In this document: positions 4,169-36,244 of the stretch, piece after piece
Numbering within the stretch: the stretch's first letter is position 1
Layout of the letters: every line of letters starts with the position of its first letter
NCBI GenBank assembly: GCA_016184225.1
Contig: JACPDA010000004.1
Coordinates: forward strand, 538,763-602,762
Direction: 5' to 3'
DNA length: 64,000 nt
DNA from: Candidatus Daviesbacteria bacterium
Lineage (GTDB): Bacteria > Patescibacteriota > Microgenomatia > Daviesbacterales > UBA10151
Position numbers and translations under genes: made by a program
Notes under the pieces: generated by a model
What the model was told of the DNA's origin: nothing
Databases searched by the model: none
The model's input: the letters and a program-made list of their open reading frames with translations, nothing else

Positions 4169-5230
4169 ATGAAATTATATTCTAATATAAATTATTTTTT
4201 TGTTATTTGGTTGGCAGTGATACTTTTAAGTTTTTATTTAGGCTTTTCCACTTTACCACATTCCGGAAAATTTGATAACAATTTTTGGGCAAGTTTTTCT
4301 AATTGGGACGGCGGGCATTACTTGGGGATTGCCAAAGAGGGTTACAGTGAAAAATTCCAGTATGCATTTTTCCCTCTTTACTCCTTGGTGATTAAGTTAC
4401 TCAACCTTCTAATCCAGAATTATTTAGCAGCAGCGATTTTAATAAGTTTAATATCAACTTTTTTAGGGCTGCATATTTTGTATAAGTTAGTTGCCGCGGA
4501 TTTTGGAAGAAAAATTGCCGGGAAAACAGCGCTGGCTTTTTTGTTTTTTCCAACGTCCTTTTTCTTATTGGTTGTCTATTCTGAAGGGTTATTCTTTTTT
4601 CTGACAGTTTTAACATTTTATTTTTTAAGGCAGAATAAATTATTTTGGGCTACGGTTATTGTTGCCTTGGTTTCTGCCACCAGGCTGGTGGGCTTGGCAG
4701 TAGTGGTAGCTTTATGGATTGATGTTTTAACAAGGCAGGGATTAAACAGAAAGAATTGGTATATTTTATTTGCCCCTTTAGGGTTTATTGCCTACAGCAT
4801 TTTTCTATATAACCAAACAGGGGATCCCTTTTACTTTATAACTGCTGAAAACTATTGGCAAAGGTCGTTGACTACTCCGGGGGCCGGATTTTGGGAAACG
4901 CTAAAGAGTATTATTAACGGGGGACTACCGGCCTTAAATTTCAAGGTGTTTTTGGATTTAATTTTTGCCATATTCGGAGTCGGTTTTGCCATCCGGGCTT
5001 TCCGGTTTTTGGCACCTTCTTTTGCAATCTATAGTTTATTATCAGTTAGTATTCCGCTTTTTACCCCGACGCTTTCTTCTATGCCGAGATTTTTGCTACC
5101 CGTATTTCCGCTGTTTATTTTGGTGGCCCTGATTAAAAATTCTTATCTGCAACTTGCTTTCCAGATGTTTTTCCTGATGTGGCTGGGAATTTTTACTGCA
5201 CTTTTTGCCGCCGGTTATTGGGTATCTTAG
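4169..5230 (+). CDS. Integral membrane protein, possible GT-C-type glycosyltransferase
   Basis: Multi-TM protein. Start placed at the internal Met (MKLYSN) to avoid a divergent overlap. Lies in the glycan cluster. Confidence 0.35.
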   Translation: MKLYSNINYFFVIWLAVILLSFYLGFSTLPHSGKFDNNFWASFSNWDGGHYLGIAKEGYSEKFQYAFFPLYSLVIKLLNLLIQNYLAAAILISLISTFLGLHILYKLVAADFGRKIAGKTALAFLFFPTSFFLLVVYSEGLFFFLTVLTFYFLRQNKLFWATVIVALVSATRLVGLAVVVALWIDVLTRQGLNRKNWYILFAPLGFIAYSIFLYNQTGDPFYFITAENYWQRSLTTPGAGFWETLKSIINGGLPALNFKVFLDLIFAIFGVGFAIRAFRFLAPSFAIYSLLSVSIPLFTPTLSSMPRFLLPVFPLFILVALIKNSYLQLAFQMFFLMWLGIFTALFAAGYWVS

Positions 5231-22453: not shown

Positions 22454-22480
22454 CTGATAGCTGATAGCTGATAGCTGATG
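22454..22480. repeat. Tandem heptamer (CTGATAG x3.5) abutting the dnaE start codon
   Basis: ctgatagctgatagctgatagctgATG. Confidence 0.6.
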
Positions 22481-25400
22481 ACTACTATGGCTAGATTTGT
22501 TCATCTTCATGGTCACACACAATATTCCCTCTTAGACGGGTTATCAAAAATTAACCAATTGGTAAAAGATACAGAAGCACTCGGTATGGATGCGCTGGCT
22601 ATAACAGACCACGGGGTGATGTATGGGGCAATTGAGTTTTACAAAGCTTGTATGGAGACCGGTGTAAAACCGATTGTTGGGGTAGAGATGTATGTCGCCA
22701 AAAGGTCATACAAGGATAAAGAGGGAAAAGTTGACAGCGAACCATTTCATTTGACTGTTTTGGCAAAAAATTACCAAGGCTACCTGAATTTAATGAAGCT
22801 GGTAACCCTGGCGCACACTGAAGGATACTATTACAGACCCCGGGTGGATAAAACTTTACTTAAGGAGTTCCATGAAGGGCTAATTGCCCTTTCCGGTTGC
22901 CCTTCAGGCGAGTTTATCAGGGCTTTAATGAAGGATGAAAAAAAGGGAGAGGAGGTTTTGAAAACATATCTGGAGATTTTTGGAGAAGGTAATTTTTACC
23001 TGGAAGTCCAAAAGCACCCGTATCAGGAATCTCTGGACTTATCTTCCGATGAAATGGTAAAAAAAGACCTGGAAGAGCTTTTAGACATCCAAGAAAAAAC
23101 ACTAAATTGCACCAAAGTTCTCTCTCAAAAAATAGGCATACCGGTTGTGGCAACCAATGACTACCACTATGTTAAAAAAGAAGATGCGGAAGCACAGGAT
23201 GCACTTTTGTGTATTCAAACAGGCAAGTTTTTGTCAGAAACCCAAAGGCTTAGGATGATCGATACTCCTGATTATTTCCTAAAATCCCCGGAGGAGATGG
23301 CGGAAAGCTTTAGGGACCTGCCGGAAGCTTTAGAAAACACTGTGAAGATTGCCGAAAGGATAGATTTGGAAATCCCACTTGGCGTAGCCCGTTTCCCTGT
23401 TTTTGAAACACCCGGTAGCAAATCTTCGATGGATTTTTTAAGGGAGTTAACGTACCAAAAAGCTGCCGAGAAATTTAAAATGACGGTTAAAATTAAGGAG
23501 CGTTTGGAATATGAGCTCGGGGTGATAGAGAAGAAAAAATATGCCGATTATTTTTTGGTAGTGGCGGATTTTATGGAATGGGCCCACCAGCGGGGAATTA
23601 TAACTAATACCCGGGGTTCTGCTGCAGCATCAATGGTTTTGTACTCTCTGGGGGTAACTAATCTAAACCCGCTTGATTACCTTTTGCCCTTCGAGCGGTT
23701 TTTAACAATATACAGGCCAACATTGCCTGATATTGATGTGGATATTGCAGACGACAGGAGGGATGAGGTGATTGAATATGTAACAAAAAGGTATGGGGAA
23801 GAAAGAGTAGCCCAAATTGTAACTTTTGGAACAATGATGGGCAGGGCTGCCATCCGGGATGTAGGCAGGGTTTTAGGATTATCTTACGGGGAAGTGGACA
23901 GGATTGCCAAATTAGTTCCTCCCCCTCATCAGGGATTTCATAAGCCGCTGTCCGGGACAATAAAAGAAGTGCCGGAACTCTCTGATCTTTATAGGAGTAA
24001 CCCTCAAATAAAAAAGCTGTTGGATTTGGCGGTTAGAATTGAAGGAACAGCCCGTCATGCCTCTGTCCATGCTGCGGGATTAGTGATTGCTCCGGAAGAG
24101 ATAACTAATTTTACCCCTCTTCAAAAAGAGTCCAAGGGGGATAAATTGGTTTCCCAGTACGACATGTTTTCTCTGGTTGATGAATACGGCGGAATTGGTT
24201 TGGTAAAGATGGATCTTTTGGGGATCAGGAATTTATCTATTTTAGGTAAGGCAGTTGAGTTTGTTAAAGAAAACCGGGGCATTAGCGTTGATTTAAATAA
24301 AATCCCGCTTGATCATAAAAAGGCCTTTGAGCTTTTGGCAAAGGGTGAAACAATGGGGATATTTCAACTTGAGGGATCGGGTATGACAAGATATGTGACA
24401 GAACTGCAGCCGACTAATATTTTAGATATTCAGGCTATGGTGGCCTTATACCGGCCCGGCCCCATGAGCGTAATCCCCGAATATATTGCCCGAAAACACG
24501 ACCCCCGCAAGATTAAATTTTTTGACCCCCGGATGAAAGAATATATGGAACAATCATTAGGTCTTTTAGTTTATCAGGAGGATGTGCTTTTGACTGCCAT
24601 AAATATAGCCGGATATTCCTTCGAAGAGGCAGATAAATTTAGGAAGGCCATGGGAAAGAAAATTCCCTCTGAAATGGCCAGGCAGAAGGGAAAGTTTATT
24701 GAAGGATGTATAAGCAATGGGATGAGAAGAGCAAAGGCAGAGGAGTTGTTTGCCATTATTGCTCCTTTTGCGGCGTATGGCTTTAACAAAGCGCATGCTG
24801 CCAGTTATGCCATGGTTTCCTACCAGACAGCGTATATGAAAGCCAGCTTTCCGGTGGAGTTTATGGCTGCCGTGATGACAGCTGAGTCCGGGGACAGCGA
24901 TAAGATTGCGGCTGCCATCGAAGAGTGTAAAAGATTGGGGATAGTGGTTTTGCCTCCGGATGTTAATAAATCCGGGGTTGGTTTCTCGCTGGAGAAGCTT
25001 AAGGAGCTGACTCAGGCAGATTTGGAACGCAGCCTGTCTGTAGGAGAAAGCGAGGTTAAGCAAGGTATTAGGTTCGGGTTATCTGCTATTAAAAATGTGG
25101 GAATTTCTGCCATTGAGTCTATTATTGAAGCCAGAAAAAAAAGTGAGTTTATTTCTTTACCTGATTTGTGCTCCCGGGTTGATAATAGATTGGTTAACAG
25201 GAAGACTTTGGAAAGTTTAATCAAAGCCGGGGCGCTGGATCACCTGGGTACCCGGGCCGCCCAACTTTTAATCCTGGATCAGTGTTTGGAAGAGTCCCAT
25301 AAACAGAATAAAAATAAGCTGTCCGGGCAGGTATCTTTATTTGGCAGCGAAGATGACTTAGGGGATGTAGCTATAAAACTGCCTGATGTTTCAGAATTAC

Positions 25401-26032
25401 CTTTAGAACAGCTGTTGGTTTTTGAAAAGGATTTACTGGGATTTTACTTGCATGAACCACCCTATCTGGCTTCTTTGCAACAGTTAACAAAATTTGTTTC
25501 AAATAAGCTGTCTGATTTAGGGGATGAGCATATAGGCAAGACTTTAAAATTAGGCGGTGTGATAGTTTCCGTTAAGAAGGTGATTACCAAAAAGAGTGCA
25601 AAAGAGATGGCCTTTATTAAAATCTCCGACGGTGTCTCTTCTGTCGAAGTGGTGGTATTCCCCAAAACTTATGAAGAATGTAAAAACTTCCTGACTTCGG
25701 ATCAGGTGGTTTTTATCTTTGGGCGGGTGGAGAAACGGGAAGAAGAGTTGTCTTTGATTGTGGAAAAAATCAGTTTATTTGACCCCGATTCAATCGGGGT
25801 TGATCCTAAAAATGTGGAAATTACCATTCCTTTAGGAACAGATGTAACAGTACTGCAAAATATAAACAGAACTTTACGGGGATTTCCCGGTAAGGTGCCA
25901 GTGGCATTGCTTTTGCATGGCAGTAATGGCAGTGTCAGAAGAATGGATTTACCGTTTTCCATAGACCCTGATCTTTCTTTGGAAGAAAAGATTAAAGGGA
26001 TTTTAGGCGAAGGTGCTTTCAAACTGGTCTAA
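22478..26032 (+). CDS. dnaE: DNA polymerase III alpha subunit
   Basis: PHP domain ([13 protein letters not shown]), polymerase core and OB fold. Contains a ccccgatt-family hairpin in frame at 25781..25800 (DPDSIGVD). Confidence 0.9.
25781..25800. repeat. ccccgatt-family hairpin inside dnaE
   Basis: gaccccgattcaatcggggt. Identical to 34746..34765. A related ccccgattaaatcgggg sits in the tRNA-Lys fragment at 31578..31596. Confidence 0.65.
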
Positions 26033-26052
26033 ATTGTGTTAATATTTCATTC

Positions 26053-26367
26053 ATGATTTCGGCACAAATTGGTGAGCAAAATTTACATATCGGGGATACT
26101 GTTAGAGTCCACAGTAAGGTTGTGGAAGGAGAGAAGACCCGGGCCCAGGTTTTTGAGGGAATTTTAATCAGCCTGCGGGGTAGAGGTGAGAATAAGACTT
26201 TTACTGTCCGTAAAATCGGTGCAGGAGGGATTGGGGTGGAGAGAACCTGGCTTTTAAATTCTAATTCTATTATTAAAATTGAGGTCAAAAAAAAAGCCGG
26301 CAAAGTGAGAAGGGCCAAGCTTTATTATTTAAGGGATCTGACCGGTAAGAGCGCAGTAAGGGTTTAA
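26053..26367 (+). CDS. rplS: 50S ribosomal protein L19
   Basis: 104-aa protein with ...[14 protein letters not shown] near the C-terminus. Confidence 0.8.
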
Positions 26368-26376
26368 TAACTCAGG

Positions 26377-26736
26377 GTGACAAAAATACAAGCCGGAAAT
26401 TATGGCGAGAAAATCGCCTATAAGTATCTACAAAAGCTGGGCTATAAAATTCTGGAGAGGAATTACCGGATTCGGGGTGGGGAGATAGATATAGTGGCAA
26501 AAGATGGGGAGACGTTAGTTTTTGCGGAAGTAAAAACCAGATGGTCTCATGAATATGGCTTGCCTGCCGAATCCATGACCCCTTGGAAAATTAAGTATCT
26601 TCTAAAAACTGCTATGTTTTATGTCCAAAAAATCAACTGGGGTGATAGAGAATACAGGTTGGATTTTGTATCGGTAGATTTTGCAGACAGTAGAGAAAAT
26701 CCGAAAATAGAATTAGTTAAGAATATTACTTCTTAG
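26377..26736 (+). CDS. yraN: YraN family (UPF0102) endonuclease
   Basis: GEKIAYKYLQKLGYKILERNYR...GEIDIVAKDG...FAEVKTR. Confidence 0.75.
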   Translation: MTKIQAGNYGEKIAYKYLQKLGYKILERNYRIRGGEIDIVAKDGETLVFAEVKTRWSHEYGLPAESMTPWKIKYLLKTAMFYVQKINWGDREYRLDFVSVDFADSRENPKIELVKNITS

Positions 26737-27583
26737 GTTTAGTCACAGCAAAGGGGATTTCTTCCCAGTCTTTTACTTTCCTGATTTTTTTATTAATCGA
26801 CCAGGCTGCTTCCAAAAGCCTGGGATCTAATTTTAACTGCCTGGCCCGGCCAATCAGTGCTACTACATCTTTGGGGAAGCATTTCCCGCCAAAGCCCTTG
26901 GCTGTGGTGACATCTAAGTGTGAATCAAAAATCCGATGATCTGCCACCACCATGCTTTTAACTTCCTCATATTTGATACCTAAAGCCTGACATAGGACAA
27001 ACATTTCATTGGCAAAAATAACTTTGGTGGCTAAAAATGCATTAGCCATGTATTTGACCATCTCGGCTGTGGTGGTATCGGTTTGGAAAATTTTAGTATG
27101 GGGAAATCTTTGCCGGTACAGTGCTACCACTCTTCTGGAAGTCAAATCATTATTCGCCCCCACTATATTACGGTCTGCATTTAAGAAATCCTCCAAATAG
27201 TTTGCCTCTGTTAAAAATTCCGGATTAAAGGCAAAATTAGTCTTGGGGTATTTTTTTTCAAATTCCGCAGTTGTCCCCGGTACCACAGTGGATTTGATAA
27301 CGATAATCTTGTCGGTATTATCCGTATATTTGGTAATCTCTGTAATACTCTCTCCAATTATGGAAAGGTCAATTCCCGACTCATCCTCTTTCATGGGGGT
27401 AGGCAGGCAGATAAAGATGAATTCGCTGCCGGAAACTACTGATTCCAAGCTGTCAGTGTCTTTGTATTTATCATAGTAGCGGATTTCGTATTTATCTTTT
27501 ATTTCCGGCTGGGAAAATCCGTAAGCCACGGCCTGGCCGACTATGCCGTAACCGATGATGCCGAGTTTAGGTTGATTATTCAT
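26726..27583 (-). CDS. UDP-glucose/GDP-mannose dehydrogenase family protein (short form)
   Basis: Rossmann motif GIIGYGIVG and the catalytic GGKCFPKD motif. Start set at MNNQPKLGIIGYG. Lacks the usual C-terminal domain. Confidence 0.65.
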   Translation of the reverse strand: MNNQPKLGIIGYGIVGQAVAYGFSQPEIKDKYEIRYYDKYKDTDSLESVVSGSEFIFICLPTPMKEDESGIDLSIIGESITEITKYTDNTDKIIVIKSTVVPGTTAEFEKKYPKTNFAFNPEFLTEANYLEDFLNADRNIVGANNDLTSRRVVALYRQRFPHTKIFQTDTTTAEMVKYMANAFLATKVIFANEMFVLCQALGIKYEEVKSMVVADHRIFDSHLDVTTAKGFGGKCFPKDVVALIGRARQLKLDPRLLEAAWSINKKIRKVKDWEEIPFAVTKPKK

Positions 27584-27614
27584 GCAGAAAAAGTATAGCA
27601 TAAAAGAGTAAAGC

Positions 27615-28019
27615 ATGGGTATGATTAGAAAAATGGCTTTGGCAGTATTTAAAGACAGAAAACTCTTACAAGTTAGGACTAAGAAGGAAAAAGACGTTTT
27701 CTATACCTTGGGAGGGAAAATTGAAGAGGGAGAATCTGAGATAGAGTGTTTAAAAAGAGAAGTTAAAGAAGAAATAGGTTGCCAGATCGACGAGTCTTCG
27801 CTTAAGTTCCTGACTGAGTTTGAGGATGTAGCTCATGGCAAAGGGGGGCTACTGGTAAATATCAGGATGTACGAAGGCAAGCTGATCGGTGTGCCCAGGC
27901 CCTCTTCAGAGATAGTGGAAATTGGCTGGTTTGATACCGGATCAGATAAAAAGAACCTGTCGGTAATAGCCCTGCGGACAATTTTCCCCTGGTTAAAAAA
28001 GCATGGGTATATAAATTAG
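27615..28019 (+). CDS. Nudix hydrolase
   Basis: Nudix box GGKIEEGESEIECLKREVKEEIGC. Confidence 0.75.
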   Translation: MGMIRKMALAVFKDRKLLQVRTKKEKDVFYTLGGKIEEGESEIECLKREVKEEIGCQIDESSLKFLTEFEDVAHGKGGLLVNIRMYEGKLIGVPRPSSEIVEIGWFDTGSDKKNLSVIALRTIFPWLKKHGYIN

Positions 28020-28043
28020 TGGACTAGCTTGACACCTACCGTC

Positions 28044-28071
28044 CTTGAGTAAGTAGTTTGATTCCAGTATA
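28044..28071 (+). promoter_or_regulatory. Candidate sigma70-type promoter (TTGAGT-16-TATAAT) ahead of a structured leader and tRNA-Glu
   Basis: Hexamers read by eye from the sequence. No other support. Confidence 0.3.
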
Positions 28072-28202
28072 ATCTTTAAGTCTGGCGCCGAGTCAAATTC
28101 GGCTGGCAAGTTTAACTTGCCGCGATCGTTCCCGATGATCGTTGTCATCGAGGATCCTGATAGCGAAGCGTATCGGGGATTGAAAAGTTAATAATTAAAT
28201 CT

Positions 28203-28276
28203 GACGCCATCGTCTAGTGGCCTAGGACACAGGGTTTTCATCCCTGGAATCGCGGGTTCGACTCCCGCTGGCGTCA
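28203..28276 (+). tRNA. tRNA-Glu (anticodon TTC)
   Basis: GACGCCATCGTCTAGTGGCCTAGGACACAGGGTTTTCATCCCTGGAATCGCGGGTTCGACTCCCGCTGGCGTCA. Close to canonical tRNA-Glu architecture. Confidence 0.8.
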
Positions 28277-28344
28277 CAAGTAGTGGCCGCGGTACCAATC
28301 GACCTATAGTTGACTTAGCTCCGCTATTCCTCTATACTTTTGCT

Positions 28345-28992
28345 ATGGGAAGAACAAGTCCAGAAAATAAAGATCGGTCACCATTTAAAACTGAAGGCCC
28401 GGATTTAATCTTTGTTGATCCAGGTTTGAATTTACCTGAAGGAATGACAACAGCAGATATTAGAGATGCTCTAAATCAAGCTAGAGCTTTTGAGAGGCAA
28501 ACAATCAGCTATGATGTTTTTATCAGAGAAAAATTAGAGAGAAATGGATTACCTAAGGGAGGGGGTTCATGGGGTTCAAGCGGGTTTGGGTTTATAGAAT
28601 TATCAGTAGATTCAGTCAGAATGAAGGCTTCAGATCTCTCGATTCCACCAGGTTATACTCCTGCACCAGCTTCTCAGCAAATGTGGGCAGCAGCTTTTGA
28701 AGAAGCACTTCATGCTGCCAGACAGGTTGCCGGGAAAGATCATGGTGGTTATTTTACTCTTCCAGTAAATCCTACAGAAAAGGATTGGCAGAGATACTTA
28801 TCACAGAAACAGGAAGCTGTTGTGGATAAAGCATTAAATGGAGGAATGCTGGAGGCAAAGTTTGGTAGGGGTGTAATTTACTTGGGGAAAAGAGTTTTAT
28901 ACATAGTTCCTGTTTTAGATCATACAATTGAAAAAAATAAGAAATTTTATCCCTCCAGCAGAGATATTTTGTATAATTTACCTTGTGGTTGA
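28345..28992 (+). CDS. Hypothetical protein (locally elevated GC, just after tRNA-Glu)
   Basis: 215-aa ORF with no recognised motif. Confidence 0.3.
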   Translation: MGRTSPENKDRSPFKTEGPDLIFVDPGLNLPEGMTTADIRDALNQARAFERQTISYDVFIREKLERNGLPKGGGSWGSSGFGFIELSVDSVRMKASDLSIPPGYTPAPASQQMWAAAFEEALHAARQVAGKDHGGYFTLPVNPTEKDWQRYLSQKQEAVVDKALNGGMLEAKFGRGVIYLGKRVLYIVPVLDHTIEKNKKFYPSSRDILYNLPCG

Positions 28993-29851
28993 AGCATTTG
29001 AGAACACAAAAGCCTTCATAAAAGCCGCTCTGGCGGACAGGGCTCACCTGAAAAAACCTGGATATGTTAACGAGTATCGTTGGGTTCGGGCAAAAAATAT
29101 ACTGGGAATTTATTATTTTACCCCTACAGCCACTACCGGGGATTTAGCAAGGATGTATGGTTTTGCAAATCGGGAAAGACCGAGCCAAATTATCGAAAAT
29201 TGCTTAAAACATCTCTATTCTAATTGTTCAATTGAGACTCAGCAAGCTTATGAGTTAAGCCAGCTATACAACAAAAAGCCTTATACTTTAGAACAGTCTT
29301 TGAAAATGTCAAGGATCCTTGGAGGGGCAACTGCTGGCATAGTCTCTTTGGCTAGCCAGGGTAAAACCGCTGAGCAGATCCTTCAGGCTGGATACACAGC
29401 TCGTGAGCTGGGAAGGGCGCGCCGGTGCGCCGCCCGCTGGGGAAATAAGAGGCTTCCTTATATCAGACCGGGTTGTGTTGAAAACACTCAGTTGTTTGAA
29501 GCCTTGCAAAAAGAAGAAGACCCTGAAGAAATTAAGAAGCTGCTTGCCCGGGTGAATGCGTCCTTTTATAATTTGCATAGCAGAGGAGAGGTTCCCTTGC
29601 TTCTATCAGCGAAAAACATTTTCTTGCGAGCAGGTATTCCCAACAACTACAATAGAAGAGGTATTTATCCCCCAGGACTTATTAAACTTCTGGAAGAAAC
29701 AGATGAGCCGATACCTTTTGGATCCTTAATCAAAACTGTTAAATCAGGTCCACAAAAAGGTCCACAGGTCTATTATTTTACATTAACAAGATTTCAGGAA
29801 CCAGCTATTCGTTTGCTTAAGGCATCAGTCCTGAAGCCTAGGATAGAATAG
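28928..29851 (+). CDS. Hypothetical protein (start uncertain)
   Basis: 307-aa ORF with a GC-rich middle section (RARRCAARW). The true start is probably downstream of the 65-nt overlap. Confidence 0.3.
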   Translation: MKKIRNFIPPAEIFCIIYLVVEAFENTKAFIKAALADRAHLKKPGYVNEYRWVRAKNILGIYYFTPTATTGDLARMYGFANRERPSQIIENCLKHLYSNCSIETQQAYELSQLYNKKPYTLEQSLKMSRILGGATAGIVSLASQGKTAEQILQAGYTARELGRARRCAARWGNKRLPYIRPGCVENTQLFEALQKEEDPEEIKKLLARVNASFYNLHSRGEVPLLLSAKNIFLRAGIPNNYNRRGIYPPGLIKLLEETDEPIPFGSLIKTVKSGPQKGPQVYYFTLTRFQEPAIRLLKASVLKPRIE

Positions 29852-30990
29852 AGGTTTTTAAGACCTGGGGAATTTTTCTTTGCCAGGTCCAGAAGAAACT
29901 CTAAGGCCTTTGGGGTATTTAGGTTATTGTCTAAAATGGCAGTAAATTGCTGGATAAGAGAACCAGATTGCTTCGTCGTTTCACTCCTCGCAATGACAGA
30001 TTCTATAGTCTCAACTTTTTTTTGGGCTTGGATTAGGTTTTTCTCTTTGTATTCCCAGTTTTTGTTCCAGTGGTGGGAGAGTAGTAGCCAGCGGATAGCA
30101 TTGGGGGAGTATTTTTTAAGGAGATCGGAAACCATTACCAAATTTCCTTTGGACTTGCTCATTTTTGCTCCTTGGTAAAAAACTGTGCCGGTATGCATCC
30201 AATACCGAACAAAAGGGATTTTTCCGGTGGCTCCTTCGCTCTGGGCAATTTCCGCTTCGTGGTGGGGGAAGATTAAATCATTGCCTCCGCCGTGAATATC
30301 TATTCTCTCTCCTAAATATTCCATACTCATGGCTGAGCATTCTATATGCCAGCCCGGCCGGCCAGGACCAAAAGGGGAGTTCAAGTGAGGTATATGGGGT
30401 GGTTGGTCAGCGGTGGAGGCCCTCCAGAGGGTAATGTCCAGGGGATACCTTTTTTCCGGACATTCCAGATCCTCATCAAAGTCTAGGGAATCTTTAAACA
30501 TTTGATCCTGAGTGAGCCTGGATAACTTGCCATAATCAGGAAACTTTGCCGTATCCAAATAAACACTGTTGTTAACCCGGTAAGCTAATTCTTTATCCAG
30601 CAGATCCCGGATTAGGTCAACCATGTGGTGGATATGTCTGGAAGCTTTAACATAATGGTTGGGGTGAATCCAATTTAATGAGTGCATGTCTTGCAAAAAT
30701 TTCCTGGTCCAAAAGTCAGCCAACTTTTTCCAGGATATATGCTGCTCCTTGGCCCTATCTAAAATGTCGTGATCACGGTCATTTATGTCTGTAACATTTT
30801 GAGTGTAGGTTACTTGAAACCCCTTAAACTTTAAGTATCGGATGAGCGCGTCAAAAGAAATATAGGTAAAGGCATGGCCCAAGTGGGTGGTGTCATAAGG
30901 GGTAATGCCGCAGACATAGATAGTAACCTTATTTTTATTTAGAGGCTTAAATTCTTCTATTTTGGCGGTTAGGGAATTAAAAATGTTCAC
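29794..30990 (-). CDS. cysS: Cysteine--tRNA ligase
   Basis: HIGH motif (TTHLGHAF), KMSKS motif (KMSKSKGN), and a zinc-binding Cys (CGITPY). Confidence 0.85.
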   Translation of the reverse strand: MNIFNSLTAKIEEFKPLNKNKVTIYVCGITPYDTTHLGHAFTYISFDALIRYLKFKGFQVTYTQNVTDINDRDHDILDRAKEQHISWKKLADFWTRKFLQDMHSLNWIHPNHYVKASRHIHHMVDLIRDLLDKELAYRVNNSVYLDTAKFPDYGKLSRLTQDQMFKDSLDFDEDLECPEKRYPLDITLWRASTADQPPHIPHLNSPFGPGRPGWHIECSAMSMEYLGERIDIHGGGNDLIFPHHEAEIAQSEGATGKIPFVRYWMHTGTVFYQGAKMSKSKGNLVMVSDLLKKYSPNAIRWLLLSHHWNKNWEYKEKNLIQAQKKVETIESVIARSETTKQSGSLIQQFTAILDNNLNTPKALEFLLDLAKKNSPGLKNLYSILGFRTDALSKRIAGS

Positions 30991-31192
30991 TCACCATTGA
31001 TTTCAATAAGGATTCCGGCTCCTTCCAAATCCTCTCTGCCCTAAACCGCTCCGATGTATATTTATCCTTGTGAGTATCACACATATCAGCTATTGGGTTA
31101 TTGGGTTGTTCTTTGACATCAAATAAATGCCATTTAGCCTTTTCAGGGCACTTAGGTTCATTGCATGGTTTTGGTTCTCTTTCACTCTTCAT
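30977..31192 (-). CDS. Hypothetical small protein (CxxxxC...CxxH)
   Basis: 71-aa ORF. May form a single frameshifted gene with 31182..31457. Confidence 0.25.
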   Translation of the reverse strand: MKSEREPKPCNEPKCPEKAKWHLFDVKEQPNNPIADMCDTHKDKYTSERFRAERIWKEPESLLKSMVSEHF

Positions 31193-31457
31193 GGTTCACT
31201 TTCGGGTTAACCCAAGGGATTACCTGAAATCTTGGCAATTCAGGAGCGTCTACTGTAGTAAAAGTCCTAGGCCCTAAATCTTCCATGATTGGCCGGAAAA
31301 GTATTCTTTTGGCAGTAATGGGTTTTAAAGCCTCTCCTGCATCAGTACAAGGCCGGGAGATAATCACCTCTTTTTCAATACGAATATAGCCCACAACTCT
31401 TTCAGACATATGATATTTTGAAAATCCTACATTGGCAGAAGATGACAGGGTAGGCAC
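31182..31457 (-). CDS. Hypothetical protein
   Basis: 91-aa ORF with no recognised motif. Confidence 0.25.
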   Translation of the reverse strand: MPTLSSSANVGFSKYHMSERVVGYIRIEKEVIISRPCTDAGEALKPITAKRILFRPIMEDLGPRTFTTVDAPELPRFQVIPWVNPKVNHEE

Positions 31458-31562
31458 AATAGTATTACTTATATCATATCAGCCAGCGTATATCAAGAAT
31501 CAGTAGGTTTAAAGATGCGTGAATATTTTGTATAATACAATCTGCTCTCTCCAAAATTCTAC

Positions 31563-31611
31563 GGGCCGGTAGCTCAGCCCCGATTAAATCGGGGTCAGCG
31601 GTAGAGCAGGA
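31563..31611 (+). pseudogene. tRNA-Lys 5' fragment (positions about 1-28) with a 19-nt hairpin insertion in the D-loop
   Basis: gggccggtagctcag[ccccgattaaatcggggtc]agcggtagagcagga matches the 5' part of the intact tRNA-Lys at 31801, then diverges. Confidence 0.65.
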
Positions 31612-31617
31612 TTGTGT

Positions 31618-31810
31618 ATGTTTTACATGTATATACTAAAAAGCCTTGATGAACGGTACTATATCGGTTCAACAAATGATTTAGTATGAGTTAGTTCATA
31701 AAGAAGAGTATGAAACACTTATTGAAGCAAGAGAACGAGAGAAGAAGCTTAAGTCATATAAAAGTAAAAAATATATAAAATGGTTAGTTAGTAAAAATTT
31801 GGGCCGGTAG
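31618..31810 (+). pseudogene. Decayed GIY-YIG nuclease gene (UPF0213/YhbQ-like), with a frameshift and internal deletion
   Basis: ATG...MFYMYILKSLDERYYIGSTNDLV* gives the GIY-x10-YIG motif. The +1 frame continues VHKEEYETLIEAREREKKLKSYKSKKYIKWLVSKNLGR* and ends inside the first 10 nt of tRNA-Lys. Confidence 0.55.
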
Positions 31811-31872
31811 CTCAGCGGTAGAGCAGGAGCCTTTTAAGCTCTTGGTCCAGGGTTCGATTCCCTGCCGGCTCA
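31801..31872 (+). tRNA. tRNA-Lys (anticodon TTT)
   Basis: GGGCCGGTAGCTCAGCGGTAGAGCAGGAGCCTTTTAAGCTCTTGGTCCAGGGTTCGATTCCCTGCCGGCTCA. Confidence 0.8.
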
Positions 31873-31875
31873 CAG

Positions 31876-32838
31876 ATGATCACACAAATCAACTGGGTTG
31901 ATTTTGTAATTGCCGGTATACTACTGGCCTTTGCCCTAGAGGCTGTGGGCAGGCCCCTGATTTTGGAGCTTTTGGACCTGACCAGTTTTGTTTTGGCCGG
32001 CCTGCTATCTTTTAACTACTATAACCTGCCGGCCAGGTTTTTTGAGAGCCGGTTTAGCGTTCCCCACGGCTTGAGTTTAGTTTTAGGTTTTATGGCGGTT
32101 TGGTTTTTATCAGAAGTAGTTTTTTATTTGTTGGCCAGGCTCTTTTTACAAAGGACAACCAGGCTTAAGGTTCCCGCATCCAGGGCTTTATCGGCGATAC
32201 CGGCGTTGCTTCGGGGGTTAATATTCGTGGCCTTAGCCTTGGTTATGGTGGCCACTTTCCCTATTCAGCCGGCCGTCAAAAAAGCTGTTTTAGATTCAAG
32301 GATAGGCAGCCAAATTTTAAGGTATGCATATGCTCTGGAGCAGCCTGTCAAGCAAGTCTTCGGCGGGGTAGCCAATGATTCCCTCACCTTTCTGACGATC
32401 AAGCCTAAGACCGACCAACGGGTGGACTTAGGTTTTCAAACCAGTGAGTTTTCTGTTGATGAGAAATCAGAGGTAGCAATGGTTAACTTAGTTAATAAGG
32501 AAAGAGCTGCCAGGGGGTTAAAAGCGCTAACTTTAGATGTGCGGCTTCGGGCTATAGCCAGGGACTATAGCGGCGATATGTTCCGTAGAGGATATTTTTC
32601 CCACTATTCTCCGGAAGGGTTATCTGTAGCAGACCGGGTTTTAAATGCGGGAATTGACTTTTTGGTAGTGGGAGAAAACCTGGCTTATGCGCCGGATGTG
32701 GTATCAGCGCATAAAGGATTTATGAATTCGGAAGGCCACCGGGCCAATATTTTATCGGAAGATTATTCTAAGGTGGGGATAGGCGTAATGGATGGAGGTG
32801 TGTATGGCCGGATGTTTACCCAGGTATTTGCGAACTAG
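31876..32838 (+). CDS. CvpA-like membrane domain fused to a CAP/SCP (PR-1-like) domain
   Basis: N-terminal four-TM colicin V production-like region. C-terminal CAP motifs (GYFSHYSPEG...GENLAY...HRANIL). Confidence 0.55.
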   Translation: MITQINWVDFVIAGILLAFALEAVGRPLILELLDLTSFVLAGLLSFNYYNLPARFFESRFSVPHGLSLVLGFMAVWFLSEVVFYLLARLFLQRTTRLKVPASRALSAIPALLRGLIFVALALVMVATFPIQPAVKKAVLDSRIGSQILRYAYALEQPVKQVFGGVANDSLTFLTIKPKTDQRVDLGFQTSEFSVDEKSEVAMVNLVNKERAARGLKALTLDVRLRAIARDYSGDMFRRGYFSHYSPEGLSVADRVLNAGIDFLVVGENLAYAPDVVSAHKGFMNSEGHRANILSEDYSKVGIGVMDGGVYGRMFTQVFAN

Positions 32839-32855
32839 ACGGTAGATGATAGAAG

Positions 32856-33455
32856 TTGGAAGATAGATTGTTGAAGATGGAAGATAGAAGTTGGAATACG
32901 AGATTACTGATTGGTTTAAGTTTAGTAATTTTATTTTTAGGAGTTGGTTTTTTATGGTTTGGGTTAAATCCTAAGACGTTGGAGCAACCCACCCTGTCTT
33001 TAGAAGCTACCCAGCAGGCCACTGGTTCTGCCACGCAAGGAGTGGAGGGAGAAAGAGCTTTGGTGACTAAGGTGGTGGATGGTGATACCATTGTGGTAAA
33101 CGGCGAACAAACAATCCGTCTTATAGGGATAGATACGCCTGAAACAGTTGATCCGCGCCGCCCGGTTGCCTGTTTCGGAAAGGAAGCCAGTAGCGAAACT
33201 AAAAGCTTGTTGTCCGGAAAAGAGGTGATTCTGCAGAAAGATGTTTCAGAAATTGATAAATATAAAAGGCTGCTGCGCTATGTTTTCCTGCCGCTTCCCT
33301 CCGGGCAAACGCTGTTTGTTAATGATTATTTAGTGAGGGAGGGATTTGCCAAAGTCTTAACTTATCCCCCTGATGTTAAATATAACACCCAGTTCAGGCA
33401 GGCGGAGACAGAGGCCAGGGAAGAAAACCGGGGGTTGTGGGGCAGATGCAGGTAG
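32856..33455 (+). CDS. Thermonuclease (SNase-like) family protein
   Basis: VVDGDTIVVNG...IRLIGIDTPET and later YKRLLRYV...VREGFA. Confidence 0.75.
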   Translation: MEDRLLKMEDRSWNTRLLIGLSLVILFLGVGFLWFGLNPKTLEQPTLSLEATQQATGSATQGVEGERALVTKVVDGDTIVVNGEQTIRLIGIDTPETVDPRRPVACFGKEASSETKSLLSGKEVILQKDVSEIDKYKRLLRYVFLPLPSGQTLFVNDYLVREGFAKVLTYPPDVKYNTQFRQAETEAREENRGLWGRCR

Positions 33456-33474
33456 TATGATAAACTAAGGTAAA

Positions 33475-33960
33475 ATGAAAAAATTCATTTTTCAGTTTGC
33501 GCTTTTAGTGATAGGTATTTTTGCGGTACTATTTTTTTATCAAAAAAACCCAGACCTCTCGGGATTACCGTTTGTGCCTGAGCGGTCGGTATTTAAGGAA
33601 CTGCAGATTAATAGCGTCAAGCTTAAAGTTGAGATAGCGGATACTCAAAGCAAAAGAAGCAAAGGCTTGGGAGGAAGAGAAGCTTTGGCATCCGATGAGG
33701 GGATGTTATTTATCTTTCCAAAAACGGAAAGGCACCCCTTTTGGATGAAGGGCTTAAGTTTCCCGTTAGATTTTATTTGGATCAGGGGAGAGGTAGTGGT
33801 AGATCTGTTCCAAAATATACAGCCTCCAACCCCGGACCAGCCTGATGAGTCGCTGCCCATCTATCAATCAAAAGAAGAGGTGGATCAGGTTTTGGAAGTT
33901 TTGGGCGGGACAGCAGCGGGGTTGAAACTTAAAATAGGAGATATGGTAAAGGTAATATGA
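33475..33960 (+). CDS. DUF192 (COG1430) domain protein
   Basis: ADTQSKRSKGLGGRE...GMLFIFP...PFWMKGLSFPLDFIWI. Confidence 0.65.
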   Translation: MKKFIFQFALLVIGIFAVLFFYQKNPDLSGLPFVPERSVFKELQINSVKLKVEIADTQSKRSKGLGGREALASDEGMLFIFPKTERHPFWMKGLSFPLDFIWIRGEVVVDLFQNIQPPTPDQPDESLPIYQSKEEVDQVLEVLGGTAAGLKLKIGDMVKVI

Positions 33961-35696
33961 CGGAAATTCTGCCCATCAGATTATTGCGGGACGAGGACAG
34001 TTTGATTTTTGGGTCATTAAACGTATCTTTGGGAAAACTGGCAAGAATGGATTTTCCGGTTGCGCCTGGTATTGCAGTTACACCACCCACCTTAAAACTT
34101 AAAACTACTTTAGAGAGTTTTGACTTTGGCAGAAAAGAAGTCTTTCAGCAAACCCTTACTTTGGTTAAAATTAAGATAAATAAAATCCCGGTGCCGGAAG
34201 TTTTGATTCGTGAAGCCGGCAATCATAAGGTATTTTTTTTAGACGGAAGGAAAATTAAAGGGCTTAAGGCTTTGTGGGTCGATCTTTTGGACTTTTGGTT
34301 GGAACAGCTTAAAACCAGGCTTTGGAATGGTGGATTTTATCCCGGTATCACGGAAAACTTAAGCCCAAAAGTGGTGGCCTTTGTTAACAATCCGGAAGCC
34401 TTTGTTACCTCCTATGAAGACAATTTGCAGGATGATGTGGTAGTAAATACCAAATCAGGCAAGTTACACCCCACTGATTTGAAGAAAATAGTGGAATTAA
34501 CAGAGTTAGCTGATAAAAAACTGTTTATCCCTAATGAATATGAGTGGGTAGTAGACAGGGGGGTTAAGCTGGTGGGGATAAAGCCATATACTCCAAACCA
34601 TGTCATTCCGGGGACGAACGAAGTGAGAACTCCGGAATCTGATTCTGGACGCGCTGCGCTTGCCAGAATGACAGAAAGTAAAAGCAAAAGTGCTGTTAAA
34701 GTTTTTTTTGATTTATCTCAAGGGTTGGTGGTTGAGAAAGATGTGGACCCCGATTCAATCGGGGTGGACGGAGTTTATATTGCTTCCGAGAAAATTTTTG
34801 ACTTAAACAAGCCTCACGAATCCTTTGATAATCTGGTTTTTAAATTAGTAGAATCTGCTATGACTTTCCCTGACTCTCCTGTTCTTTTTAAATTGGCAGA
34901 TAAATCAGAGGGGATGGGTAAAGTCCGGGGAGCCTTGCGGCTAATTCACCAAAAGAATCTTCTTGATCCATTGTTGGATGCTTTAGATTTTGCCCGCCAT
35001 AAAAGGGGTCTTAATAATATCCATATAGTTATCCCTTTTGTCCGGGGAGTGGGTGAGCTTTTACAGGTTAAAAGAGAGTTGGCCACCAAAAAGCTGATGA
35101 GGAAAGCCTCTTTGCAATACTGGATGGAAGTGGCAATTCCGGAGAACATTATTAATATGGAAGATTATCTTTTGAGCGGGATTGACGGGGTAGTCTTAAA
35201 CTTAAATGAGCTGTTAGCCCATTTAAATGGGTTTGATCCGGCGGAGCCGGAGCTGTCTTTATACAAAAATGAAGTTAGTGGATTAATTAAATTTTTGGAA
35301 GACGGCATTAGGCTTTTGCACAAATCCCAGGTTCCCTTTATAGCTTATGGCAGTTTAAGCCTCTATCCAAAGGTTTTAGAGTTTTTGGTGGGAAAAGGGG
35401 TCTATGGGGTGGTGGTGGAGAAGTACGAAGCCCACTCAGCCCATGACCTGCTACATCAGACAGAAAAAAAGGCTGATTTTAAGAAGGTCAGTTTGACTCA
35501 CCTCGAAGGTGAAGGAAATGCGGTTACACCTTCGAGGTGGAATAAAAGGACATATTCTCCTTTGGGTCCGCCAGTTGGCGGGTTGAGCTCTTCCAGCCAC
35601 TTTGTGATAGGTTTTGATTCCACACTCTGGTGGATTTTGGTAAGTTCATGGGCTAGTACTATTTCCATATTTCCAAAAACTTCTTTCATGTCCTGA
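33957..35696 (+). CDS. PEP-utilizing enzyme family protein (PEP synthase/PPDK-like N-terminal and TIM-barrel domains, with no phospho-His domain recognised)
   Basis: N-terminal LGKLARMDFPVAPGIAVT. C-terminal IPFVRGVGELLQ...GIDGVVLNLNEL. The last 60 or so codons read through a REP doublet and overlap rsmI, so the true stop is likely earlier or was lost. Confidence 0.45.
   Translation: MTEILPIRLLRDEDSLIFGSLNVSLGKLARMDFPVAPGIAVTPPTLKLKTTLESFDFGRKEVFQQTLTLVKIKINKIPVPEVLIREAGNHKVFFLDGRKIKGLKALWVDLLDFWLEQLKTRLWNGGFYPGITENLSPKVVAFVNNPEAFVTSYEDNLQDDVVVNTKSGKLHPTDLKKIVELTELADKKLFIPNEYEWVVDRGVKLVGIKPYTPNHVIPGTNEVRTPESDSGRAALARMTESKSKSAVKVFFDLSQGLVVEKDVDPDSIGVDGVYIASEKIFDLNKPHESFDNLVFKLVESAMTFPDSPVLFKLADKSEGMGKVRGALRLIHQKNLLDPLLDALDFARHKRGLNNIHIVIPFVRGVGELLQVKRELATKKLMRKASLQYWMEVAIPENIINMEDYLLSGIDGVVLNLNELLAHLNGFDPAEPELSLYKNEVSGLIKFLEDGIRLLHKSQVPFIAYGSLSLYPKVLEFLVGKGVYGVVVEKYEAHSAHDLLHQTEKKADFKKVSLTHLEGEGNAVTPSRWNKRTYSPLGPPVGGLSSSSHFVIGFDSTLWWILVSSWASTISIFPKTSFMS
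34746..34765. repeat. ccccgatt-family hairpin inside the PEP-like ORF
   Basis: gaccccgattcaatcggggt, read as DPDSIGVD as in dnaE. Confidence 0.65.
35497..35545. repeat. REP doublet (two cores in inverted orientation) in the overlap of the PEP-like ORF and rsmI
   Basis: CACCTCGAAGGTG at 35501..35513 and CACCTTCGAGGTG at 35529..35541. Confidence 0.7.
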
Positions 35697-36244
35697 AGTG
35701 ATTTAATCAACTTATGGGGAGCTACAAAAATAATATAAGTCAGTTTCAACCCCAGTTCACCTGGAAGGTGTCTGTGTTGTTCACCTTCCAGGTGTAGCTT
35801 GGAAAGTTTTTTTAGTAGATCCATTCTGTGGCCAGGTTTCTCCGGCAAGTACCCTAAAAACATAAATTTATCAGGTGGCAATCCTGACAGTGTTAAGGCC
35901 GTGATCACGGAGGATGGACCTGGGAGGGAATCAACCTGAATCCCCTGGTGTAAGCATTCCCTTACTAGTTTGAAACCAGGGTCACAGATGAGTGGTGTCC
36001 CGGCATCAGAAACCAGAGCCAGGTTCTGTCCGGATTTTAACCTGTCAATAATCTGCGGAAAACTTTTCGATTCGTTGTAGTCATTCAAAATAATGAGCGG
36101 TTTCTTGATTTGGTAGTGATTTAAAAGAAGGGAGGTTCTTCTGGTATCTTCGCAAATTACGGCGTCCACAGACTGCAAGGTTTCCAAAACCCTTAAGGTG
36201 ATATCTTTTAAATTACCGATAGGCGTAGGCACAATGTATAGCAT
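35498..36244 (-). CDS. rsmI: 16S rRNA (cytidine1402-2'-O)-methyltransferase
   Basis: MLYIVPTPIGNLKDITLRVLETL...DAVICEDTRRT. The C-terminal tail is encoded by a REP copy. Confidence 0.8.
   Translation of the reverse strand: MLYIVPTPIGNLKDITLRVLETLQSVDAVICEDTRRTSLLLNHYQIKKPLIILNDYNESKSFPQIIDRLKSGQNLALVSDAGTPLICDPGFKLVRECLHQGIQVDSLPGPSSVITALTLSGLPPDKFMFLGYLPEKPGHRMDLLKKLSKLHLEGEQHRHLPGELGLKLTYIIFVAPHKLIKSLQDMKEVFGNMEIVLAHELTKIHQSVESKPITKWLEELNPPTGGPKGEYVLLFHLEGVTAFPSPSR

Follow-up and report, generated by a model that had tools for sequence, protein, structure and literature searches.

Rickettsia palindromic elements, yeast mitochondrial GC clusters, repetitive extragenic palindromic (REP) sequences, bacterial MITEs (miniature inverted-repeat transposable elements) and free-standing GIY-YIG homing genes were used as known systems for comparison with the element reported here. 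This element, a 17-nt palindrome designated PAL, was found in a 64,000-nt stretch (hereafter the window) of contig JACPDA010000004.1 from a Candidatus Daviesbacteria bacterium (GenBank assembly GCA_016184225.1), in which three related hairpins lie in dnaE, in a phosphoenolpyruvate (PEP)-utilizer-like gene and in a tRNA-Lys fragment. Whatever the enzyme involved, the three hairpins very likely represent a miniature mobile palindrome that is specific to Patescibacteria and was inserted at a 4-nt staggered break.

Rickettsia palindromic elements (RPEs), reportedly described by Ogata et al. in 2000 and mentioned by name in PMC1779305, add a peptide segment at tolerated surface positions, as PAL does, and their in-frame insertion with preservation of the open reading frame (ORF) is also seen for PAL. 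However, RPEs are approximately 100-150 bp long, fall into unrelated sequence families and have no known fixed 4-bp duplication, whereas PAL is 17 bp long, always adds 21 nt, occurs (among the matches listed in our searches) in Patescibacteria and is linked to a cassette of GIY-YIG and tRNA sequences. In yeast mitochondria, GC clusters are short GC-rich palindromes whose terminal direct repeats, AG or TAG, are read as target-site duplications; in-frame insertions in var1, tandem arrays and merged copies are known, and the mobilizing activity is unknown (PMC8811140). PAL resembles them by analogy, with no homology: it too is a GC-rich palindrome bounded by short direct repeats, and it likewise has tandem copies (loci L206 and L144) and in-frame copies. 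GC clusters are organellar, typically tens of bp long and heterogeneous, with 2-3-nt repeats, whereas PAL is bacterial, uniformly 17 bp long, and has a 4-nt duplication and a partner cassette. In functional terms, PAL behaves like RPEs and these clusters, and there is a real chance that its GIY-YIG link makes it something new.

REP and REPIN sequences with their RAYT transposases, as well as the IS200/IS605 elements, share with PAL a short, hairpin-forming, multi-copy repeat and an HUH Y1 gene in the same genome. REPs are extragenic, have a fixed flanking tetranucleotide without duplication and flank a RAYT gene, whereas PAL has variable true duplications that agree on both sides, approximately 28% of its copies (two of three in the window) lie in long ORFs or genes, and the Y1_Tnp gene of the window is flanked by another hairpin, CACCTTCGAGGTG. 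Bacterial MITEs such as Correia and ERIC (reviewed in PMC3184786) have inverted repeats and a target duplication, and are non-coding, multi-copy and presumably moved in trans, all of which is similar to PAL; its two perfect 8-bp arms constitute terminal inverted repeats, and a duplication of fixed length was found at all three window copies, in 16 of 124 genome matches listed and in at least 108 metagenome contexts. MITEs, however, are at least about 50 bp long (roughly 50-500 bp, with internal sequence) and derive from identifiable insertion sequences (ISs), whereas PAL is two 8-bp arms around a single internal base.

The cassette that carries PAL resembles the free-standing GIY-YIG homing genes at tRNA regions, such as T4 SegB (PMC2330249), in having a small GIY-YIG gene beside tRNA genes. 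Tandem cassettes suggest self-propagation, and some members of the GIY-YIG family are structure-specific nucleases acting on branched and hairpin DNA. Unlike Seg-type genes, the cassette duplicates the 5' part of the tRNA and always has PAL in the D loop. To our knowledge, a tRNA 5' duplication with a palindrome in its D loop has not been described for Seg-type genes, and no description of PAL or of the cassette was found in the literature searched.

PAL in the window and its empty sites

The PAL core is composed of two perfect 8-bp inverted arms with one unpaired base between them, and as single-stranded DNA it is predicted to form a hairpin of -6.4 to -8.4 kcal/mol. Three copies of the core, CCCCGATT-N-AATCGGGG, are present in the window, where none is expected by chance. 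Identical 20-nt matches to GACCCCGATTCAATCGGGGT in dnaE and in the PEP-utilizer-like ORF, both encoding DPDSIGVD, had been pointed out in the original prediction, and they were recovered exactly at 25781-25800 and 34746-34765 (0 matches in 100 window shuffles); the third copy is the variant palindrome CCCCGATTAAATCGGGG at 31578-31594. A direct 4-nt repeat lies on both sides of every copy, namely TTGA in dnaE, TCAG in the tRNA fragment and TGGA in the PEP-like gene. This target-site duplication, which is absent from the earlier account of the hairpin, proves that all three copies are insertions. The copies, their hosts and the tRNA sequences used for comparison are as follows:

25779..25803, plus strand: PAL copy 1, TTGA + CCCCGATTCAATCGGGG (25783-25799) + TTGA, in dnaE
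31574..31598, plus strand: PAL copy 2, TCAG + CCCCGATTAAATCGGGG (31578-31594) + TCAG, in the D loop of the tRNA-Lys 5' fragment
34744..34768, plus strand: PAL copy 3, TGGA + CCCCGATTCAATCGGGG (34748-34764) + TGGA, in the PEP-utilizer-like gene
22478..26032, plus strand: dnaE (DNA polymerase III alpha), host of copy 1
33957..35696, plus strand: PEP-utilizer-like ORF (PF02896; locus tag HYU45_03210), host of copy 3
31563..31611, plus strand: tRNA-Lys 5' fragment, tRNA positions 1 to about 28, split by PAL; leader of the GIY-YIG cassette
31801..31873, plus strand: intact tRNA-Lys(TTT), the empty-site reference

A generic scan of the window for 13-21-nt palindromes with an exact 4-nt flanking repeat retrieved exactly three structures, each with a core of 17 nt, compared with 0.0 in shuffles; no further palindrome with a core of 13-21 nt and such a repeat was found in the window besides the three PAL copies. 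Across other loci, the same scan yielded PAL variants and a few one-off palindromes whose flanks are of low complexity or unrelated, consistent with chance. Since the core (17 nt) and the duplication (4 nt) sum to 21 nt, each insertion adds exactly seven codons, which is why both genic copies, with their DPDSIGVD peptides, are in frame.

For each copy, an uninterrupted counterpart of the target was available. The intact tRNA-Lys, 230 nt downstream of copy 2, reads GCTCAG followed directly by CGGTAG, whereas the fragment, which ends 190 nt upstream of it, has CCCCGATTAAATCGGGGTCAG between these two hexamers, a difference of exactly 21 nt; the reference GCTCAGCGGTAG is uninterrupted in the intact tRNA-Lys at 31801. 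The insertion in the fragment had previously been given as 19 nt, and this has to be corrected to 21 nt, the 17-nt core plus the duplicated TCAG. In the PEP-like protein, the seven residues DPDSIGV form a clean indel that is absent from 116 of 120 orthologues, including the fifteen closest (70-74% identity). They lie in a loop joining two beta strands; in the AF2 model, which is of moderate quality (pLDDT 65) and was used for this placement only, strands 248-252 and 272-276 flank the loop, which is modelled with low confidence.

In DnaE, the 21-nt insert encodes DPDSIGV in a variable linker past the conserved LFDP, which ranges from 0 to about 25 residues in length among orthologues. The dnaE orthologue of locus L280 (80% identity) contains the uninterrupted TTATTTGATCCT, which serves as the reconstructed empty site. 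The PAL-bearing dnaE allele is present on contigs from three independent sequencing runs and is thus not an assembly artefact. Runs with this genome include SRR12113431, SRR12113385 and SRR12113433. The indel nature of DPDSIGV in both proteins argues against DPDSIGVD being a conserved DnaE motif, the outcome that would have undermined the original prediction, with one nuance: a native five-residue motif, FDPDSI, is present in some DnaE orthologues (P0014 and P0022) without a palindrome, and L280 natively encodes FDPDSIAGD via GATCCTGATAGTATT..., codons unrelated to PAL. The PAL peptide does resemble the native DnaE linker, yet this similarity is not evidence of conservation. The possibility that DPDSI in DnaE orthologues represents decayed PAL copies was also considered and rejected, because L280 encodes it with unrelated codons.

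Dispersal, target preference and tolerance in coding sequences

PAL is dispersed in many copies well beyond the window, and the counts given below for the genome and metagenome collections are lower bounds and not a census. In the genome collection, an exact 4-nt flanking repeat was found in 16 of 124 non-self matches listed for the 17-mer, compared with 0.5 expected. These matches comprise 39 listed from metagenome-assembled genomes (MAGs) labelled as CPR or Patescibacteria (8 with exact repeats and 12 with three of four bases matching), 25 listed from unclassified or 'Gammaproteobacteria' TPA MAGs (8 exact and none at three of four) and 60 listed from other phyla (none exact and three at three of four), the last being mostly plain terminators with A and T runs alongside. 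Among the matches listed, flanked PAL copies are confined to Patescibacteria or unclassified MAGs, and one MAG labelled 'Gammaproteobacteria' is a Daviesbacteria genome by its DnaE (82% identity). In the metagenome collection, TTGA + core + TTGA (24 fixed bases) was found in at least 108 distinct flanking contexts, whereas chance predicts essentially none. The original suggestion of a genuine dispersed palindrome family thus holds, both from the window shuffles and from the many copies in public data, and the number of copies exceeds the three first noticed by far.

Length is constant at 17 nt across more than 100 contexts, and the symmetric variants CTCC...GGAG and ATCC...GGAT show that changes in the arms are kept symmetric. 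PAL copies are also nested within other PAL copies, at the element's own central TTGA or TTTA (L111 and L101) or in an arm, with duplication of CGGG (L125), and tandem copies have a common TCAA between them (L206 and L144). A further insertion, in a tRNA acceptor stem, duplicated CCCG (L178). The same sites have been filled recurrently: in L124 and L125, PAL occupies the same PEP codon as in the window but is bracketed by TTGA, whereas the bracketing repeat in this genome is TGGA. The repeats at this site match each genome's own codons (GTT-GAT or GTG-GAC), which indicates independent insertions at the same PEP site and argues against the filled sites being ancestral and the empty ones products of deletion. 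In L126, the same PEP site holds another 17-nt palindrome, CCCCGCCACAGGCGGGA, with TTGA. The dnaE site is also filled in L103, whereas closer relatives have no insert, and L127 has PAL at another dnaE site.

Of those duplications that the search pattern had not pre-selected, roughly half are YTGA/TCAR, and the remainder are mostly one base off. In a set of 86 solo TTGA sites, the duplication is followed by C in 58% of cases, against a background of 19%, and by G in 7%; the preceding base is weakly G. The PAL target is thus the asymmetric TTGA followed by C; no longer target motif, nor a long motif in common with the tRNA D arm, was found beyond the C at +1 and the weak G at -1.

Of 114 non-redundant copies, 32 (~28%) lie within open frames that span 150 codons or more. 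Genic copies occur in each of the three frames and are read as PDSIG/PDLIG, PIKSG/PIQSG or PRFNRG/PRLNRG, and stop codons are absent in most combinations of frame and centre base. Because the unit is seven codons long and most of these combinations are stop-free, insertions survive in loops and linkers, including those of essential proteins.

Several further observations concern the distribution of PAL-like sequences. Four MAGs deposited as 'uncultured Gammaproteobacteria' (CAYQAW01, CAZCYO01, CAZQWX01 and CAYHUY01) have Daviesbacteria-like dnaE (82% identity) and Patescibacteria-type cassettes, and their titles appear mislabelled. A 25-nt variant with a larger loop, CCCCGATAGCAA(C/A)GACTAATCGGGG, is recurrent in the cassette D-loop region of L144, L177 and L270; it lies in tandem behind a standard copy, likewise with TCAA duplicated. 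Nearly all of the 22 matches in viral contigs are terminators flanked by runs of A and T. A single contig in the viral set (IMGVR_UViG_3300025015_000021, 93.9 kb; L253, L268 and L269) has PAL three times, in one case with TTGA exactly duplicated; either PAL has invaded a Patescibacteria phage, or the contig is a genome fragment that was misfiled.

PAL-identical sequences are also found at the tips of native variable rRNA helices in a few related Patescibacteria-like MAGs, twice in the 16S rRNA of L078 (minus strand, 1531-1547 and 1804-1820) and once in the 23S rRNA of L068 (6238-6254). These hairpins fit the Rfam models without extra length and have no flanking duplication; they were therefore not counted as proven insertions, and they may reflect either PAL replacing native hairpins or convergence. 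A match in an archaeal 16S rRNA is a native helix.

A tRNA and GIY-YIG cassette that carries PAL

The third window copy belongs to a recurrent arrangement. Thirty PAL copies lie at AGCTCA followed by A or G in the D loop of a ~28-nt tRNA 5' fragment; this is followed by a small ORF of ~85 aa and then, about 300 nt on, by the intact tRNA, which is a tRNA for Lys, Arg, His or Asp. An exact 23-nt copy of the empty site is located 61-373 nt downstream in 19 of 31 D-loop copies. The window copy at 31578 is a decayed example of this cassette, and its GIY-YIG ORF is a pseudogene. Besides the tRNA fragment and the intact tRNA listed above, the window cassette has two components:

31508..31536, plus strand: promoter-like site TTTAAA-17-TATAAT upstream of the tRNA fragment, consensus match only
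31618..31797, plus strand: degraded GIY-YIG ORF (MFYMYILKS..YYIGSTNDL..), with stops and a 58-nt deletion compared with intact orthologues

It had been proposed that the palindrome can sit in protein-coding and RNA-coding sequences alike. It does lie in tRNA sequence, but the host is a dead tRNA 5' fragment, and no intact tRNA carrying PAL was found among the loci examined.

The cassette ORF encodes a GIY-YIG domain (PF01541; E = 2.6e-13 and 9.8e-15 for intact homologues), so that the catalytic domain typical of free-standing GIY-YIG genes is present in the intact homologues and degraded in the window copy. The protein resembles stand-alone UPF0213 proteins and the SLX1 structure-specific endonuclease (PDB 1ywl, 1zg2 and 4xlg); the intact one of L087 is 80 aa long. 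In a blind sample of six loci, which were picked solely by GIY-YIG protein similarity and contig size and seeded with one GIY subfamily, all six show, in this order, a tRNA-Lys fragment whose D loop carries PAL, the GIY-YIG gene and an intact tRNA-Lys. The same arrangement was found for 21 of 31 GIY-YIG ORFs of PAL loci. In five Daviesbacteria, the tRNA fragment, PAL and the duplication are 100% identical, the leader is unalignable and the GIY-YIG gene has diverged at approximately one third of sites. The cassette D-loop site has G at +1, the base avoided by solo sites (7%), and target preference therefore does not explain the near-total PAL occupancy of cassettes. Signs of homing are indirect only: cassettes occur in tandem (L161, L141, L087 and L270), and their anatomy is shared among the tRNAs for Lys, Arg, His and Asp.

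As to the arrays themselves, tandem cassettes upstream of one intact tRNA were observed in L087 (4500-5220), L161 (5604-5932), L141 and L270 (1201-1868). Some arrays hold two different GIY-YIG subfamilies, and the last codons of the GIY ORF overlap the 5' end of the intact tRNA. In L087, the second subfamily has a different palindrome, TCCGCCAGCTGGCGGA (4850-4866), in its tRNA-fragment leader.

Candidate movers and consequences for Patescibacteria genomes

Under the mechanism that we propose, the 17-bp core would enter a 4-nt staggered break with duplication of four target bases. The preferred target is YTGA/TCAR, most often TTGA followed by C, and insertions persist in protein surface loops and linkers, intergenic DNA and dead gene fragments. 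We infer that YTGA is the site of a 4-nt 5'-staggered cut or strand transfer. The candidate mover is the ~85-aa UPF0213/SLX1-like GIY-YIG nuclease, whose gene lies directly downstream of a strictly conserved PAL in a cassette that comprises a putative tRNA promoter, a tRNA 5' fragment whose D loop contains PAL, the GIY-YIG gene and, last, the intact tRNA. Because of this tight and conserved linkage of PAL to an SLX1-like gene, the nuclease is the leading candidate enzyme, proposed as a tentative hypothesis and not as a finding. The fuller proposal, that PAL and the SLX1/UPF0213-like gene form an autonomous mobile system, appears rather doubtful at present; here the nuclease would recognize the 17-bp hairpin or cruciform and paste it into 4-nt staggered YTGA cuts, and the gene would ride in tRNA genes by duplicating their 5' part.

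Several points weigh against this interpretation. Characterized GIY-YIG nucleases such as I-TevI and Eco29kI leave short 3' overhangs, which would give no 4-nt duplication, and GIY-YIG enzymes are not known to produce 5' overhangs of 4 nt. For a conventional DDE synaptic complex, a duplex of 17 bp is very short, and the asymmetric target, TTGA followed by C, is unusual for dimeric transposases. As the GIY-YIG ORF of the window cassette is a pseudogene, any activity here would have to come from another genomic copy. PAL occupancy of cassettes could also be survivorship, since PAL splits a 28-nt direct repeat that would otherwise delete the GIY-YIG gene. In addition, the blind sample was seeded by only one GIY subfamily, and the scan counts are lower bounds.

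The foremost alternative is that PAL is non-autonomous and moved in trans by an unlinked DDE-type transposase, with its presence in cassettes being secondary and anti-deletion; we consider this possible rather than probable, and about equally possible to the GIY-YIG candidate. The CC...GG termini (CCCC/GGGG in full), the 4-bp duplication and the TTAA-like target recall the IS1380/piggyBac superfamily, and a true, variable 4-nt duplication is a hallmark of staggered strand transfer. Tandem re-insertion at a regenerated target is seen in L206, and the cassette anatomy fits the anti-deletion logic, in which PAL removes an uninterrupted 28-nt direct repeat. However, no DDE transposase was seen beside any copy, and no longer element with PAL termini and a matching duplication was found in ~1.6 Mb of loci; when pairs of the half-sites CCCCGATT and AATCGGGG up to 6 kb apart with matching flanks were sought as a parent IS in all loci examined, only adjacent solo copies were retrieved. 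Moreover, arms of 8 bp and a total of 17 bp fall far short of the minimal ends that are known, the target lacks symmetry, and the exact conservation of PAL in cassettes exceeds what an anti-deletion spacer needs.

It is very unlikely that PAL is a REP-like sequence moved as a single-stranded DNA hairpin by the HUH/Y1 (RAYT or IS200-type) transposase encoded at 57721-58368 of the window. A Y1_Tnp gene is indeed present in the window and in the relatives L280 and L103, PAL has a REP-like size and hairpin potential, and its asymmetric target is similar to that of ISDra2, which is TTGAT. However, the window gene (IS200/RAYT-like, 215 aa, minus strand) has TTTAGCTTTACACCTTCGAGGTG on both sides (57680-57720 and 58369-58420) and is bracketed by the CACCTTCGAGGTG hairpin, a separate family of eight copies in the window (0.04 expected), partly in inverted pairs. 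A target duplication does not arise in HUH transposition, from which a constant 3' tetranucleotide would be expected, as in REPs with their conserved flank, whereas PAL has no such tetranucleotide and even rare tetramers agree on both of its sides (CCAG, CAAA, TAAA, TGGA, CGGG and CCCG). With a Y1 gene that has its own hairpin family, and with real duplications around PAL, an HUH/RAYT origin was rejected.

The CACCTTCGAGGTG hairpins are a separate REP/REPIN-like family with its own transposase. Members are located at 39, 20230, 35499/35525, 35758/35780 and on the Y1 flanks. The pairs at 35499-35794 coincide with the 3' end of the PEP-like ORF, which explains the odd C-terminal tail of its product; the true C-terminus of the protein is probably near 35500, with the ORF tail reading through REP-like hairpins. 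In the Daviesbacteria relatives L280 (3691-4383) and L103 (2563-3252), a 230-aa Y1_Tnp gene with AAGGCAACGCCTT hairpins is inserted between dnaE and rplS, which adjoin in the window (26032/26053).

A third alternative, that the 17-mers are excision footprints, in which both ends of a larger cut-and-paste transposon stayed behind between the target repeats after its departure, is highly improbable. A target repeat, two inverted ends and a second target repeat do form the anatomy of a footprint, and footprints of Stowaway and mariner elements are documented (PMC4561436). A kilobase insertion in dnaE, however, would be lethal before excision, yet the dnaE and PEP sites have been filled repeatedly; the 17 nt are invariant in more than 100 contexts, nested and tandem copies exist, and a parent element was not found in the loci examined. 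Finally, the reading without mobility, in which DPDSIGVD reflects a conserved motif, of peptide or DNA, or selection retains the hairpin as a terminator or regulatory site, could draw on native FDPDSI in some DnaE orthologues and on the many terminator-like 17-mer matches with A/T-run flanks in other phyla, but it is refuted for the Patescibacteria copies, since the native FDPDSIAGD codons are palindrome-free, the seven residues are missing from nearly all PEP orthologues, and flanking duplications with empty sites cannot come from conservation.

Other palindromes and repeats were noticed in the window. The uvrC ORF (60379-61743) contains a perfect 18-nt palindrome, ATCCGCCGGCCGGCGGAT, at 61394-61411, in frame (..YRRFKINPPAGGSGQPNDVGMM..), which is possibly another seven-residue insert of a different palindrome family; a clear flanking duplication was not seen there. 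The TCCGCCAGCTGGCGGA palindrome in the L087 tRNA-fragment leader is similar to ATCCGCCGGCCGGCGGAT. In addition, ATCCGCTGCAAGAGCGGAT occurs twice (12203-12221 and 14157-14175) with identical flanks of at least 15 nt (ctctagatttgaaaa...attttcgaaatctgc); these copies are ~1.95 kb apart, within a larger repeat or long hairpin, near tRNA-Asp (14189-14262).

Patescibacteria genomes are tiny and gene-dense, so that nearly any insertion strikes a gene, and a seven-codon element can spread in such genomes without breaking reading frames. PAL is thereby a previously unrecognized source of length variation in core proteins, including DnaE, the PEP-utilizer-like protein and many others, and rRNA helices may also vary through it. 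Homoplasious seven-residue inserts at the same site confound alignments and phylogenies, and PAL breaks assemblies and could serve as a strain marker. The cassette gives the widespread, function-less UPF0213 GIY-YIG family a concrete and testable candidate substrate. If the GIY-YIG link is true, PAL would be the smallest known transposable unit, with a new transposition chemistry, and GIY-YIG-driven DNA transposition of a minimal, frame-neutral element would be reshaping the proteins of Patescibacteria.

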